DNA from: an uncultured Chlamydiae bacterium
GTDB taxonomy: Bacteria > Chlamydiota > Chlamydiia > Chlamydiales > Parachlamydiaceae
Length of the DNA: 64,000 nt
Direction: 5' to 3'
Assembly (NCBI GenBank): GCA_963754655.1
Contig: CAVWGN010000001.1
Span: forward strand, 192,001-256,000
The notes below the pieces were generated by a model. That model saw only the letters and a program-made list of their open reading frames with translations, was not told the DNA's origin and searched no databases. Made by a program: the position numbers and the translations under genes. Within the stretch, counting starts at the first letter, position 1. Every line of letters starts with the position of its first letter. Shown piece by piece: positions 55,432 through 61,995 of this stretch.

Positions 55432-56211
55432 TTACTGTTCTTCATTTAACGTTAAAGGAATTTGATAACCATGTTTATCGAGTAAATCTTTTAGTCTTTC
55501 AGAGATAAGAAGAATATCTTCTGTATCAAAATGTTTCAGATGCTGGAATGCTTTTCCTTTAGCTGGAAACTTATTGGCCGCTCTTTGCAAATCTTTTTCA
55601 GTAAATTCATATTTGCATGCTTCGAGAATCTGCGCTAAGTAGTAGGTGGGATTATCCATTAAGTCTTCATAACGGATAGTTAATACATTGGGTTCTTGAT
55701 CCCAATAGTCTTGAAATTTACGCCAAGAATATAAGTAATCCCCTATAGTCTCTTTAGGGACTTTATAGTTGCTATCGGATGGATGTGCATACACATAAAA
55801 AGATGAAATGCTGTCGATGGGATTGCGAATAATTCTAATGGCTCCTACAGAAGGTTGATGGTCAAATTGATTGGGCTTAAAACTTGGAAAGTGCGTTTTA
55901 ATGACGATACTCTCATGAGGTTGAGGATAACGGCAATTTCCTTGGTATCCACCATCCACGCTATATCCTCCCCAAGGAAAAGGAGTAGGCAAATGAGGTC
56001 GAAAGTCGCTATCCTGATAAACGGAGCTTGTTGCGATGTGAGACGCTTCTTCAATAAGGAAACGCACCCAATGATTACCTGAACGTGGATAAGTTGCTAA
56101 ATAGATTCTTTGATTCCACTCATTTGCTTGTATCTCATTTGCTTCTTCTACCCATGCAAATTGAACCATAAGCGTGAAAAATGTGAGAAAAATGTAAATT
56201 TGCTTTCTCAT
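55432..56211 (-). CDS. PAPS-dependent sulfotransferase with N-terminal signal peptide
   Basis: ATYPRSGNHW (5'-PSB loop), KTH, IRNPIDSISS (3'-PB), IRYEDL; start reassigned to MRKQIYIF with AAGGAG RBS. Confidence 0.85.
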   Translation of the reverse strand: MRKQIYIFLTFFTLMVQFAWVEEANEIQANEWNQRIYLATYPRSGNHWVRFLIEEASHIATSSVYQDSDFRPHLPTPFPWGGYSVDGGYQGNCRYPQPHESIVIKTHFPSFKPNQFDHQPSVGAIRIIRNPIDSISSFYVYAHPSDSNYKVPKETIGDYLYSWRKFQDYWDQEPNVLTIRYEDLMDNPTYYLAQILEACKYEFTEKDLQRAANKFPAKGKAFQHLKHFDTEDILLISERLKDLLDKHGYQIPLTLNEEQ

Positions 56212-56251
56212 TAATTTATCTTCTCCTTTCCATAGCATTTGAATTTGAGGG

Positions 56252-57604
56252 TTAATTGGATTTACTGGGAACATACAAATAGAAATAATAAGGTTCAGTG
56301 ATAATTTCTTCTGTTTTTAGCAGACCAGATTTGGCAATTTGCATTGCCCAATCTGTATCTTCACTATAAGATTGATTTGGAAAAAAGAATTGAGAACCGA
56401 TGGCACGTTTAATAGGGTTAAGATGATTAGGAGGCCGATAATAAATTCCATTTTTCTGAAAATAAGTTTGATACTGAATGGAATGGATGAAAATTTTGGG
56501 ATTCTCCTTATTAAAAGTAATAATACCTGTTAAACTCACGCAATCAGGTCGATATTTTAATTTCTCATGAATCATTTTAACATAGTGATCATGCACGTCG
56601 TCATCATCATCAATGAAATTAATGTATAAACCCTTGCTTTGTCTTAATAAGGCGTTACGTTTAGTGCCAATTGATTTTTCTCGATTATCTAAAAAAAAGA
56701 GGATTTCTACCTTATCATCTAGTCCCTCTTCTTGAATTTGCTTTTTTAATTTTTGGTAAAGTCGCTGAAATGATTGTTCTCTTTCTTGTAAAGTACAAAT
56801 TAAAATCGACCAATCTTTAGGCAATGCTTCTTCAAACACACGTTCATTCAAATCAAAATAACGTGCTCGTCTTTGCTCATAGATGGCTTGATCAACGTGG
56901 TAGAAAGATTCATTACGTGCCAGAAGAGCATCAAAAGATTCGCTTCTGTAGAGGGGATGATGATGATGAATAATGATTTGATTAATGACCGCTTCTTTAC
57001 CCAACATTCTAGAAACAACTGTTAGCTCATTGTCACACCACAGGGCATGATAAGCTGGATGATAAGCATAACCAAATCGCTCATAATACTTTTTCCCTAT
57101 TATCGGTAGAGTGTTGAGTATTTCCCCAATATGTCCATCATGAAAATTTAACACTCCATCAAAATCAGGAAAATTCGCTAACATTTGATCCGCAATTATC
57201 TTGTCATATCCCTGAGCGACGGGTTTCATATCATCACTTGTGACGAGTAAGATATCAAACCAGTTAACATATTTGTCAATATCTCGATTATATGCTTCTA
57301 CTTTTGTTGCATTGTGACTAAAGTTTACTGTTAAGTTAGGATAGCGAGCCAGACGTTCTTTGACCTCTATGCAGTTCATAGTGGAATCGTCTACATCACA
57401 CGTAATAAGAAACCAGTACGGAATTTCACCTGATAATTTTTGATAATACAAATCCAAATGGTCAAAAAACTGCGTGGGTCTAGAACGCGTCGGGATTTTA
57501 ATGAGTAATTTTGGAGGTAAAGTATTTTCTATCTCCTGAGCATAAGCAAACTGAGATAAGATAGAGAAAAATAAAAGCAAACCTACCATCTTATTTAAGT
57601 ACAT
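56252..57604 (-). CDS. glycosyltransferase with two GT-A-like domains and N-terminal signal peptide
   Basis: IKIPTRSRP...TSDDM...CDNE first domain; SILICT...IGTKRN...FIDDDD...SEDTDW second (GT2-like); AYA-QE cleavage-like site. Confidence 0.8.
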   Translation of the reverse strand: MYLNKMVGLLLFFSILSQFAYAQEIENTLPPKLLIKIPTRSRPTQFFDHLDLYYQKLSGEIPYWFLITCDVDDSTMNCIEVKERLARYPNLTVNFSHNATKVEAYNRDIDKYVNWFDILLVTSDDMKPVAQGYDKIIADQMLANFPDFDGVLNFHDGHIGEILNTLPIIGKKYYERFGYAYHPAYHALWCDNELTVVSRMLGKEAVINQIIIHHHHPLYRSESFDALLARNESFYHVDQAIYEQRRARYFDLNERVFEEALPKDWSILICTLQEREQSFQRLYQKLKKQIQEEGLDDKVEILFFLDNREKSIGTKRNALLRQSKGLYINFIDDDDDVHDHYVKMIHEKLKYRPDCVSLTGIITFNKENPKIFIHSIQYQTYFQKNGIYYRPPNHLNPIKRAIGSQFFFPNQSYSEDTDWAMQIAKSGLLKTEEIITEPYYFYLYVPSKSN

Positions 57605-59969: not shown

Positions 59970-60270
59970 GAGAAAAGAAAAGCTGATCTTCAGAATTTTT
60001 TAAAGCAAGCACGACGAAGTTTGAACACACCTTTTACAACTCGGTATAAAAATTAGAAAGATTCTGCTGAATCTATTTGAATGCTCTAGCCTTATCGCTT
60101 CCATTTTTACGATCTAAAAAATGTTGATCTTGGAATTTATTAGGTAAGCATAAAATTTTTTATCTGATAAATGCTAAAAATTTAAATTATGAAATATAAG
60201 TGGCATCACTATATCAGTTGACAAAATTCTGAATTTATTAAATATAAAAATTAACAAGGAATGACAAACG

Positions 60271-61995
60271 ATGAAAAATAAAATTCAGCAATATTTCAGC
60301 CAAAAATGGCTATGCATTGCATTCTTATTCGTGTTAATGCCTCTTTTAGCCTCTAACATCAATCCACCTTCTAATCCTCTTTCATTAACTCTTACTCAGC
60401 GGCAAATATGTGATTTAGAACTTATCATGAATGGAGGATTTTCACCGTTAGAGACTTTTATGAATCGTGAAGATTATGAAAAAGTTGTACATGATATGCA
60501 TTTATCAAACGGGACTGTGTGGCCAATTCCGATTGTTTTAGATGTTTCAGAAAAACTTTTGGAAAAAATAAAATTAGGTTCAGAAGTGGCTCTAAAAGAT
60601 CAAGAAGGATGGCTTTTGGCTTTTTTGACTATTGGTGAAATTTGGAAGCCGCAGAAGTTAATAGAAGCTGAAAAGGTTTATGGAACGACAAATCAAGAGC
60701 ATCCAGGTGTGAATTATCTTCTCAATGAAATGGGAGATTATTATCTCTCAGGAAAGTTAACAAAAGTTCAAACGCCTTATCATTTTGACTTTATTTCATT
60801 AAGAAAAACTCCTGCAGAGCTCAAAGCATACTTTAAGGAAAATGGATTTGAGAAAGTGATTGCTTTTCAAACTCGAAATCCTATGCATCGCGCGCATGTA
60901 GAATTGACGACACGTGCGGCTCATCGCACTGGCGCTCATCTTCTGATTCATCCAGTTGTCGGGATGACGAAACCCGGTGATGTGGACTATTTTACGCGAG
61001 TCAAATGCTATCGAAAGATTCTTGATTATTTTCCAAAAGGTTCAACTACCTTAAGTTTGTTGCCACTTGCAATGAGAATGGCTGGTCCAAGAGAAGCTTT
61101 ATGGCATGCCATTATTCGCAAAAATTATGGATGCACTCATTTTATTGTGGGTAGAGATCATGCAGGGCCAGGTAAAGATAGTCTAGGCCGTGATTTTTAT
61201 GATCCTTATGCAGCTCAGGAACTCGTTCAAGCATATGCTAAAGAAATTGGAATTGAAATTGTTCCTTTTCAAGAAGTCGTTTACATAAAAGAAGATGATA
61301 ATTACCAACCAGTAGATGAAATTCCGCCTGGAAAAACTGTGCTCTCCATTTCTGGTACAAAACTTAGAAAACTGTTATATGAAGGCAGCGAGATTCCGGC
61401 ATGGTTTTCTTTTCCCGAAGTGATTGCAGAGCTTCAAAAAGTCTATCCCCCCAGATCAAAGCAAGGTTTTACTCTTTTCTTTACAGGTTTACCAGGGTCG
61501 GGAAAATCTACCCTTGCTAAAGCTGTTGCCTTCCAGTTAATGGAACTACAAGATAGATCGGTGACTATTTTAGATGGAGATGTGATTCGGACGCATTTGT
61601 CTTCAGAGCTAGGATATTCTAAAGAGCATCGATCTATCAATGGACGGAGAGTGGGATATGTTGCTAGTGAGATTACTAAAAATAAAGGAATTGCCATTTG
61701 TGCCATGGTTGCACCTTATGCAAGGGATAGAGAGTATAATCGGAATCTTATTAGTGCTTGTGGGAATTTTATTGAGGTCTATGTTTCTACGCCTTTGCAG
61801 ATTTGCGAAGCTAGAGATACTAAGGGGCATTACTCTCTAGCTAGAAGTGGAAAGTTGCCTGAATTTACTGGAATTGATGATCCTTATGAAGAGCCTCAGC
61901 AGCCTGAAATTAAAATTGATACCAGCCGCTATTCTATTTCAGAAGCTGTTGAATTGATTCTCGACTATTTACGTCAAGTCAAGCACATTGAGTAA
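60271..61995 (+). CDS. sat/cysC: bifunctional sulfate adenylyltransferase / adenylylsulfate kinase with N-terminal signal-peptide-like extension
   Basis: GGFSPL, FQTRNPMHRAH, GRDHAG, FTGLPGSGKST, LDGDVIR, FTGIDDPYE. Confidence 0.93.
   Translation: MKNKIQQYFSQKWLCIAFLFVLMPLLASNINPPSNPLSLTLTQRQICDLELIMNGGFSPLETFMNREDYEKVVHDMHLSNGTVWPIPIVLDVSEKLLEKIKLGSEVALKDQEGWLLAFLTIGEIWKPQKLIEAEKVYGTTNQEHPGVNYLLNEMGDYYLSGKLTKVQTPYHFDFISLRKTPAELKAYFKENGFEKVIAFQTRNPMHRAHVELTTRAAHRTGAHLLIHPVVGMTKPGDVDYFTRVKCYRKILDYFPKGSTTLSLLPLAMRMAGPREALWHAIIRKNYGCTHFIVGRDHAGPGKDSLGRDFYDPYAAQELVQAYAKEIGIEIVPFQEVVYIKEDDNYQPVDEIPPGKTVLSISGTKLRKLLYEGSEIPAWFSFPEVIAELQKVYPPRSKQGFTLFFTGLPGSGKSTLAKAVAFQLMELQDRSVTILDGDVIRTHLSSELGYSKEHRSINGRRVGYVASEITKNKGIAICAMVAPYARDREYNRNLISACGNFIEVYVSTPLQICEARDTKGHYSLARSGKLPEFTGIDDPYEEPQQPEIKIDTSRYSISEAVELILDYLRQVKHIE

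Follow-up and report, generated by a model that had tools for sequence, protein, structure and literature searches.

Leader peptides on the PAPS synthase, GDP-L-fucose synthase, and transferases of a parachlamydial locus, and their predicted export

We analyzed a stretch of 64 000 nucleotides, called the window below, from the genome of an uncultured member of the Parachlamydiaceae (contig positions C1:192001-256000; all C1 coordinates are contig positions). Of interest were five neighboring genes that encode a sulfotransferase, a glycosyltransferase (GT), a BclA/C1q-like protein, the GDP-L-fucose synthase Fcl, and Sat-CysC, which makes 3'-phosphoadenosine 5'-phosphosulfate (PAPS). A first-pass annotation of this DNA had proposed that all five products, even the two donor-making enzymes, begin with signal peptides. 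The five open reading frames and their leaders were found where they had been placed, and each first start is preceded by a Shine-Dalgarno-like motif (AAGGAG for the sulfotransferase, AGGAG for the GT, AAGGAGG for the BclA-like gene, GGAGG for fcl, and AAGGA for sat-cysC). The five genes are arranged as two divergent groups, with three genes encoded on the minus strand and the remaining two on the plus strand (Table 1). The source genome (G000; other G labels denote comparison genomes and L labels DNA stretches) is 3.16 Mb with 38.8% GC and is 96.7% complete. Named homologs of Sat-CysC and Fcl in our searches include Protochlamydia and Parachlamydia, which, along with the nucleotide carriers described below, marks the source as an environmental chlamydia.

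Table 1. Features of the locus, in window positions.
Feature	Position	Strand	Family or remark
PAPS-dependent sulfotransferase, 259 aa, start ATG 56211, Sec-type leader (predicted)	55432..56211	-	PF00685
Two-domain GT-A-like glycosyltransferase, 450 aa, leader	56252..57604	-	PF00535 on the C-terminal domain
Palindromic repeat element, 105-nt arms	57660..57905	.	Outside the pathway
Predicted exported BclA_C/C1q-like protein, 199 aa, start GTG 58614	58015..58614	-	PF18573 (sub-threshold) and Atlas
GDP-L-fucose synthase Fcl, 23-aa leader ahead of the full domain	58959..59969	+	NF047922
Fcl leader with n-, h-, and c-region; internal Met24 directly after	58959..59027	+	
Bifunctional ATP sulfurylase/APS kinase (PAPS synthase), Sat-CysC	60271..61995	+	NF004040
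Sat-CysC leader, about 28 aa; the cleavage site is an estimate	60271..60354	+	

Identity of the five gene products

Sat-CysC scored 859.5 bits against its family (cut-off 669) and is the only match to that family in the source genome, from which a leaderless copy is absent. It contains the QxRN, HxxH, GRDHAG, and P-loop motifs (positions 200, 206, 294, and 406), and it matched the Aquifex (2GKS) and Penicillium (1I2D) enzymes in the PDB with E values of 1e-175 to 1e-183. The AlphaFold model has a predicted local distance difference test score (pLDDT) of 89.8, and the leader appears in it as one helix at pLDDT 57-79, from which neither packing nor cleavage can be read. Fcl scored 488.3 bits, just under the cut-off of 500, with the next family at 80 bits, and it is 84% identical to a named GDP-L-fucose synthase. 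Its GxxGxxG, SSC, and YxxxK motifs are at positions 34, 130, and 160. It is the only Fcl in the genome, and its closest paralog is at most 28% identical.

The sulfotransferase, the sole PF00685 match in the genome, reached 46 bits against a cut-off of 22. Its PDB matches to SULT1A1 and StaL were weak (E about 1e-5), and its TYPRSG and RNP motifs align to SULT1A1. The GT has 707 homologs, the named ones from Babeliales and Anoxychlamydiales; its look-alikes in the Atlas are viral GT2 clusters, and in phage loci its two halves are separate leaderless genes. The BclA-like protein scored 22.1 bits against a cut-off of 38, gave an Atlas value of 0.91 to ExsF/BclA_C clusters, and matched PDB entry 9H38 at 1e-13 when a three-sequence profile was used. 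A direct sequence search of the PDB returned nothing under E 0.3 for this protein, and its single-sequence fold had a pLDDT of 36.9, too low to use. It has a Cys-rich linker and no collagen-like GXY tract. In L344, the closest flanked ortholog of the GT (74% identical) is two genes from the one close relative of the BclA-like protein, 51% identical, which bears a Thr-containing collagen tract, and a leader-bearing FkbM methyltransferase is between them. The copy in the window, which has lost this tract, is a candidate acceptor or a bystander.

Leaders in homologs, controls, and trees

Leaders were scored by our own hydrophobicity and charge rule, and a similar rule was used for the counts at chlamydial loci (Sat-CysC, zwf, ManC, and UDP-GlcNAc pyrophosphorylase). 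Among the 120 best Sat-CysC homologs, 113 had a hydrophobic leader, four had none, and three had annotated starts inside the domain. Leaders were also found in 62 of 120 Fcl homologs, in 70 of the 82 scored GT homologs (of 120), and in 43 of the 48 scored sulfotransferase homologs (top 60), so the trait is conserved in relatives as had been anticipated. The idea that the leaders are extra to the ortholog sequence was correct for Fcl, where the leader is a true addition in front of the domain, and not for Sat-CysC, where it takes the place of the usual N-terminal PHGG segment.

The anatomy of these leaders was consistent across homologs, although they differ in sequence. A positive n-region was present in 110/113 Sat-CysC and 55/62 Fcl leaders, and the median hydrophobic core was 14 and 13 aa, respectively. 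Charge was higher before than after the h-region in 106/113 Sat-CysC and 52/62 Fcl leaders. As a comparison, we picked by eye 14 exported proteins of the source genome, 12 of which were scored; these share the leader profile of Sat-CysC and Fcl, with the same charge bias in 10/12. Small residues at -3 and -1 fitted a loose pattern, easily met by chance, in 111/113 and 60/62 leaders and the strict [AVS]xA pattern in 44/113 and 17/62. Three other kinds of N-terminus were considered and rejected. The RRx-hydrophobic-hydrophobic signature of Tat substrates occurred in only 2/113 Sat-CysC and 0/62 Fcl leaders, although tatA (identified by eye) and tatC (PF00902) are encoded in the window at about 3770-4893. 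A lipobox Cys after the h-region, as in lipoproteins, occurred in 0/113 and 4/62, and a span of at least 19 residues, as in a Golgi-like type II membrane anchor, in only 2/113 and 4/62. By their anatomy, the leaders are of the predicted Sec/signal peptidase I type.

Matches to Sat-CysC occurred in 39 of 400 chlamydial genomes. We examined 34 chlamydial loci and could score 31, of which 27 had a leader; two of the three unscored loci had one by eye. By contrast, controls at chlamydial loci gave 0/28 for housekeeping zwf and 0/12 for ManC. Control Sat-CysC loci, mostly non-chlamydial and drawn from the 80 GTDB matches listed, had a leader in 1 of 72 scored, and the domain of that single protein is identical to the copy in the chlamydial genome G220. 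Sat-CysC shares its domain order and motifs with other NF004040 enzymes such as 2GKS and 1I2D and differs by its leader, with 71/72 controls among the matches listed being leaderless. Copies on viral contigs (L236-L275, many labeled as giant-virus metagenome-assembled genomes) had a leader in 0/40, and most start at approximately the predicted mature N-terminus of the chlamydial enzyme. The PHGG segment, which is present in most bacterial members, is missing both in 2GKS (aligned from residue 9) and in these viral copies. It is thus not needed for the fold, and the predicted mature form of Sat-CysC is a viable one.

Trees supported the same division. With leaders removed, 43 leaderless Sat-CysC rows, including the four leaderless chlamydial copies, were beyond a 98% branch. 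When viral rows were added, the leaderless bacterial copies made up one side of a 93% branch, and the viral copies grouped with four deep chlamydial leader-bearing copies. These were unrooted FastTree trees of thinned rows (106 and 91), and long-branch attraction is possible for the viral rows. For Fcl, a quick IQ-TREE search split off 45 leaderless rows (Geobacter, Bacillota, and others) at an SH-aLRT of 99. Two Mimivirus LCMiAC clusters are among the other 13 rows scored as leaderless, together with short calls of genes that do bear a leader. The Fcl of Mimivirus LCMiAC01/02 nests among leader-bearing rows, and the cluster look-up named only Mimivirus rows; the single name from Dependentiae was a Babeliales one among the GT homologs. 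Short calls are illustrated by the Fcl of Protochlamydia, which is recorded both with its leader (P0133, 334 aa) and without it (P0134, 309 aa). Among 61 genomes, 12 had Fcl, of which five were leader-bearing and seven leaderless. Together, these data indicate that the leader trait is real and clade-wide, and the mechanism that it suggests is plausible as a prediction.

Donor supply and transferases in the genome and its relatives

The window holds no gmd, as had been noted at the outset. Two gmd genes are present elsewhere (C1:492336 and C1:493502) and both carry leaders, in keeping with the earlier suggestion to look for leaders on the remaining donor genes; for manC, the other gene named there, no counterpart was found (no TIGR01479 match in the 96.7% complete genome). 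Neither a leaderless Gmd nor a leaderless Fcl is present in the genome. Given the lack of a ManC match, GDP-mannose appears to be the entry point of the fucose route. The four PF00483 matches are RmlA, GlgC, IspD, and one unassigned, leaderless 231-aa nucleotidyltransferase (C1:442798). The genome also gave no match for PAPS reductase (CysH, PF01507) or sulfite reductase (CysI, PF01077), for which the controls were positive in 14 and 11 of 14 genomes, respectively. PAPS can therefore serve only sulfation in this organism.

Leaders extend well beyond the locus. Among sugar enzymes they are found on an RmlB-like and RmlD-like pair, a second GalE, and a phosphomannomutase/phosphoglucomutase, and among other enzymes on an acetyl-CoA synthetase, a second close glucose-6-phosphate dehydrogenase (G6PD), a pyrophosphatase (PPase), SpeD, and SpeE. 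The leader-bearing glycosyltransferases comprise a GT10 and five GT92 proteins as well as GT17, GT34, GT4, and GT2-TPR proteins. Leaderless rmlABCD, galE, zwf, and glgC coexist with this set, and it is the second copies of GalE, RmlB, and G6PD that carry leaders. An extra leader-bearing G6PD occurs in G000 (C1:1020085; L038 85-1686), G002 (L282), and G158 (L216 5176-6804) and resembles the NADPH supply of the endoplasmic reticulum (ER). The copy in the source genome has a lipobox-like leader and fails the charge rule (n-region MHD); those of G002 and G158 pass. GspD, GspE, and GspF are present, as are four nucleotide carriers of the NTT (TLC) family.

We then compared transferases with donor enzymes in relatives. 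PF00685 sulfotransferases were present in 25/28 genomes with leader-bearing Sat-CysC, in 3/4 with leaderless Sat-CysC, and in 12/28 with no match to Sat-CysC or APS kinase. The difference between 25/28 and 12/28 has a Fisher p of 5e-4, a significance that is overstated since the genomes are hand-picked and related. The 12 donor-less genomes hold 15 PF00685 hits, of which 14 are leader-bearing and one is cut by a contig end. A cell that cannot make PAPS thus has an export-signaled enzyme that uses it, for which PAPS from the host is the simplest explanation. Similarly, the GT10 family occurred in eight relatives, with leaders on 13 of 14 scored members, and Fcl was found in 0/8 of these relatives, three of which are only 57-68% complete. 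In both comparisons the genomes are metagenome-assembled, so that absence means not found.

It had been suggested that the five genes make up one dedicated pathway. This was not supported, as the layout was seen in 0/20 Sat-CysC and 0/45 GT neighborhoods. The Sat-CysC neighborhoods covered flanks of about 8 kb in 20 relatives, in which 50 of 75 flagged neighbors and two others were scanned. A leader-bearing Pfam sulfotransferase was within this distance in 8/20, and in G158 a leader-bearing G6PD, a sulfotransferase, and Sat-CysC are consecutive. No ortholog of Fcl, the GT, or the BclA-like gene was found in any of the 20, and neither Sat-CysC nor the sulfotransferase in any of the 45 GT loci. 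In G002, fcl adjoins gmd, far from sat-cysC. On these two sets, a single conserved five-gene operon is rejected; the five genes are a loose island, and the pathway is genome-wide. Sat-CysC with the sulfotransferase and Fcl with Gmd are stable pairs, and the GT with the BclA-like gene is perhaps another.

Export might hold with a sulfate acceptor that is no glycan but a host small molecule or protein, in which case Fcl and Sat-CysC would be neighbors only by way of accessory islands. The closest solved relatives of the sulfotransferase are, weakly, aryl and glycopeptide sulfotransferases, which fits that idea, as do the unconserved layout and the separation of fcl from sat-cysC in G002. By contrast, the sulfotransferases beside Sat-CysC in G001, G003, and G013 sit among GT4, DUF6492, and Stealth-like genes, and the leader-bearing set listed above consists mostly of glycan enzymes. 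We regard a non-glycan acceptor, which overlaps with the other explanations discussed below, as possible but doubtful.

Several further features were seen around the locus and in the genome. A promoter and terminator scan of the locus gave a site count not above that of shuffles. The palindrome that separates the GT from the BclA-like gene is 246 bp with arms 98% complementary, and copies of it occur at 182 merged loci genome-wide, 112 of them at least 240 bp long. Fragments of it flank an IS200/Y1 transposase gene (PF01797) at C1:395750, and it may be a mobile element of the repetitive extragenic palindrome (REP/RAYT) type. Directly after sat-cysC (window 62000-62515) is a gene for a UmuD-like S24 peptidase with a basic N-terminal extension. 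At window 42860-50690, a 1908-aa RHS protein (DUF6531, DUF687) precedes three similar genes, all signal-bearing, and an orphan repeat of its C-terminus; the arrangement is reminiscent of a polymorphic toxin locus and its immunity genes. Elsewhere, leaders were also seen on a spermidine synthase, an SAM decarboxylase, a cytidine deaminase, a beta-eliminating lyase, a nitroreductase, and a Ppx/GppA protein (L041 7885-9411; L045 5899-6390; L043 6880-8004; L048 6374-7018; L047 9245-10249). A carotenoid-oxygenase (RPE65) gene is split into two neighboring pieces (L001 9585-11213), and a leader is present on the first. A short fragment directly behind an insertion sequence (L040 9963-10340; C1:1604963) has no Pfam match and carries what we take to be a GT11-like motif.

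Where the enzymes would work

The identities of the proteins, the conservation and anatomy of their leaders, and the presence or absence of genes are direct observations. To account for them we propose that the leaders act as cleavable signal peptides of the Sec type. The donor-makers PAPS synthase, Gmd, and Fcl would be exported, with G6PD regenerating NADPH and PPase pulling the reactions, and the donor-using transferases would be exported too. The outer membrane would be crossed by type II secretion or in vesicles, and the enzymes would work in the inclusion lumen or the host cytosol on ATP, sulfate, GDP-mannose, glucose-6-phosphate, and NADP supplied by the host. The transferases could run on host PAPS and GDP-fucose alone, which would make the donor enzymes optional boosters, much as the GMD/GMER pair probably is in chloroviruses. 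The likely product would be a sulfated, fucosylated coat on exported BclA/collagen-like fibers or on the inclusion. Export, its route, the compartment, the host origin of the substrates, and the acceptor are all deduced from sequence. On this basis, Sec export as such seems probable, and export into a host-fed compartment, either the inclusion lumen or the host cytosol, stands as the best reading of the data, with a probability that we put at roughly 0.5.

A Sec signal by itself delivers a protein only as far as the periplasm. Export could therefore end there, in a Golgi-like workshop that draws on host nucleotides and sugar phosphates bound for the inner-membrane carriers and modifies exported proteins or proteins of the outer membrane. 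The leader evidence is the same for this as for a host-fed compartment, the four NTT carriers imply that host nucleotides are present in the periplasm, and the second G6PD with its lipobox-like leader would give NADPH locally. However, in donor-less genomes, host PAPS, GDP-mannose, and GDP-fucose would have to cross both the inclusion membrane and the outer membrane. In addition, cysteine is not depleted in the Fcl domains that bear leaders, and its counts there are often odd, a weak sign against an oxidizing compartment. We consider a periplasmic end point to be rather unlikely.

Several observations weigh against export to the host. The rule for leaders also fired on 6 of 30 orthologs of the core enzyme UDP-GlcNAc pyrophosphorylase, some of them without a Shine-Dalgarno motif, so that a lone leader-like extension proves little and it is clade-wide conservation that counts as evidence. 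In the source genome itself, this single-copy enzyme (C1:267781-269223; L001 15781-17223) has a leader-like extension that lacks a Shine-Dalgarno motif, and residue 29 is encoded by an internal ATG. The gene of the only PPase found (C1:654715; L042 4715-5479) encodes a leader and contains an internal ATG accompanied by a GGTGA motif, which makes it a candidate dual-start, dual-location gene. Both activities are needed inside the cell; dual starts or chance extensions thus occur in this genome, and leader-like extensions can coexist with a cytosolic need. A second GT10, next to argS (C1:3079102; L312 3102-4106), is the only leaderless one of the 14 scored, and it would need either a different route of export or a supply of GDP-fucose within the cell. 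CysQ is leaderless. ManC was present in 1/5 genomes with leader-bearing Fcl and in 3/7 with leaderless Fcl, which is no clear contrast, and the leaderless nucleotidyltransferase at C1:442798 could be a source of GDP-mannose. A Met at the ancestral start is kept in 27/62 leader-bearing Fcl homologs, including Met24 here. The low completeness of three GT10 genomes without Fcl belongs with these points.

One way to accommodate such observations is that the enzymes work in the cytoplasm, either with the leader as a tether and the domain facing inward or with an internal start giving the main product. Met24 of Fcl, the internal ATG of the PPase, the leaderless GT10 and CysQ, the extension on the essential UDP-GlcNAc pyrophosphorylase, and the public annotation of Protochlamydia Fcl both with and without a leader are all in line with this. 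Against a tether, the core reaches 19 residues in very few leaders (2/113 and 4/62), and the charge bias predicts an N-in orientation with the domain outside. A downstream start had been named as what would undo the leaders. For Sat-CysC this fails, since a Met follows the h-region in only 12/113 leader-bearing homologs and 101/113 have no downstream Met. For Fcl it fails only in part, given the 27/62 that keep the Met; among the 12 closest rows, two have Met at the ancestral start and ten have Ile or Leu. No Shine-Dalgarno-like motif was found at Met24 of Fcl or Met23 of Sat-CysC. Furthermore, where a genome gave no APS-kinase match, its sulfotransferases would lack a donor inside the cell. 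Cytoplasmic work appears improbable. The 6/30 for the core enzyme could also mean that what looks like a leader is an artefact of reading AT-rich DNA upstream of the gene in frame. This is largely refuted by the contrast of Sat-CysC (27/31) with zwf and ManC, by the Shine-Dalgarno motifs at the first starts, and by the clustering in the trees, and we regard it as very unlikely.

Synthesis that depends on ATP, NADPH, or nucleotide sugars is taken to be cytoplasmic in bacteria. In NodPQ/NodH and RaxPQ/RaxST, a dedicated PAPS supply stands beside a sulfotransferase with no cysteine pathway, and the PAPS-makers are cytoplasmic; the pairing here is the same, except that the PAPS-maker has a leader. 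The lumen of the eukaryotic ER and Golgi holds hexose-6-phosphate dehydrogenase, nucleotide-sugar interconversion, and sulfo- and fucosyltransferases, whereas PAPS and GDP-fucose are made in the cytosol or nucleus and imported, and most of the lumenal enzymes have type II anchors. The predicted chlamydial arrangement is similar in placing transferases behind a membrane together with a G6PD that regenerates NADPH and different in that the donor-makers carry leaders and spans long enough for type II anchors are rare.

In Chlamydia trachomatis, glycogen enzymes without signal peptides reach the inclusion lumen by type III secretion and use host UDP-glucose brought in by a host transporter (Gehre et al., 2016; PMC4829429). 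The predicted location here would be another case of normally cytosolic carbohydrate enzymes outside the bacterium acting on a host nucleotide sugar; unlike that system, which makes storage glycogen, it involves Sec-type leaders, donor synthesis (PAPS and GDP-fucose), and a supply of NADPH. Sec/type II substrates of C. trachomatis such as CPAF, HtrA, Ptr, CT311, and CT795 reach the inclusion lumen and, reportedly, the host cytosol (PMC6717882). Sec-type leaders and GspD/E/F are shared with that route, but its cargo consists of proteases and unknown proteins rather than ATP- and NADPH-dependent biosynthetic enzymes. NTT import of nucleotides and NAD has been described for Protochlamydia (PMC2878342), and in Chromulinavorax (Dependentiae) 44% of proteins have predicted signal peptides (PMC6561590). 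Chloroviruses encode GMD and GMER, probably bypassing a limited host supply, and Mimivirus has a UDP-rhamnose pathway (PMC4691112). As with these viruses, a parasite is proposed here to bring donor-making enzymes to the host cytosol; the viral enzymes are made there and need no leader, whereas the chlamydial ones bear one. In the literature that we searched, mostly without subscription papers, we found no paper on signal peptides of chlamydial PAPS or GDP-fucose enzymes and no precedent for a secreted PAPS synthase. Parasite enzymes that work outside the cell on host metabolites are a known kind; the contribution of this locus lies in the PAPS arm and in the sulfotransferases without a donor.

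Tentatively, and with somewhat less than even confidence, we suggest that a secreted factory for glycosylation and sulfation operates inside the protist hosts of many chlamydiae, and probably of Dependentiae, making its own PAPS, GDP-fucose, UDP-rhamnose, acetyl-CoA, and NADPH from host metabolites. Sat-CysC would then be a secreted PAPS synthase, the gene pool would be shared with giant viruses, and the signal peptide would be the bacterial adapter to the same host compartment. Annotation trims these leaders, as with the 334 and 309 aa versions of Fcl, and so conceals the trait. If the enzymes are exported, environmental chlamydiae would draw on host pools to build sulfated, fucosylated structures beyond their own cytoplasm, chlamydial Sec/type II secretion would gain a large new class of cargo, and the surface chemistry of these symbionts would be linked to that of giant viruses.

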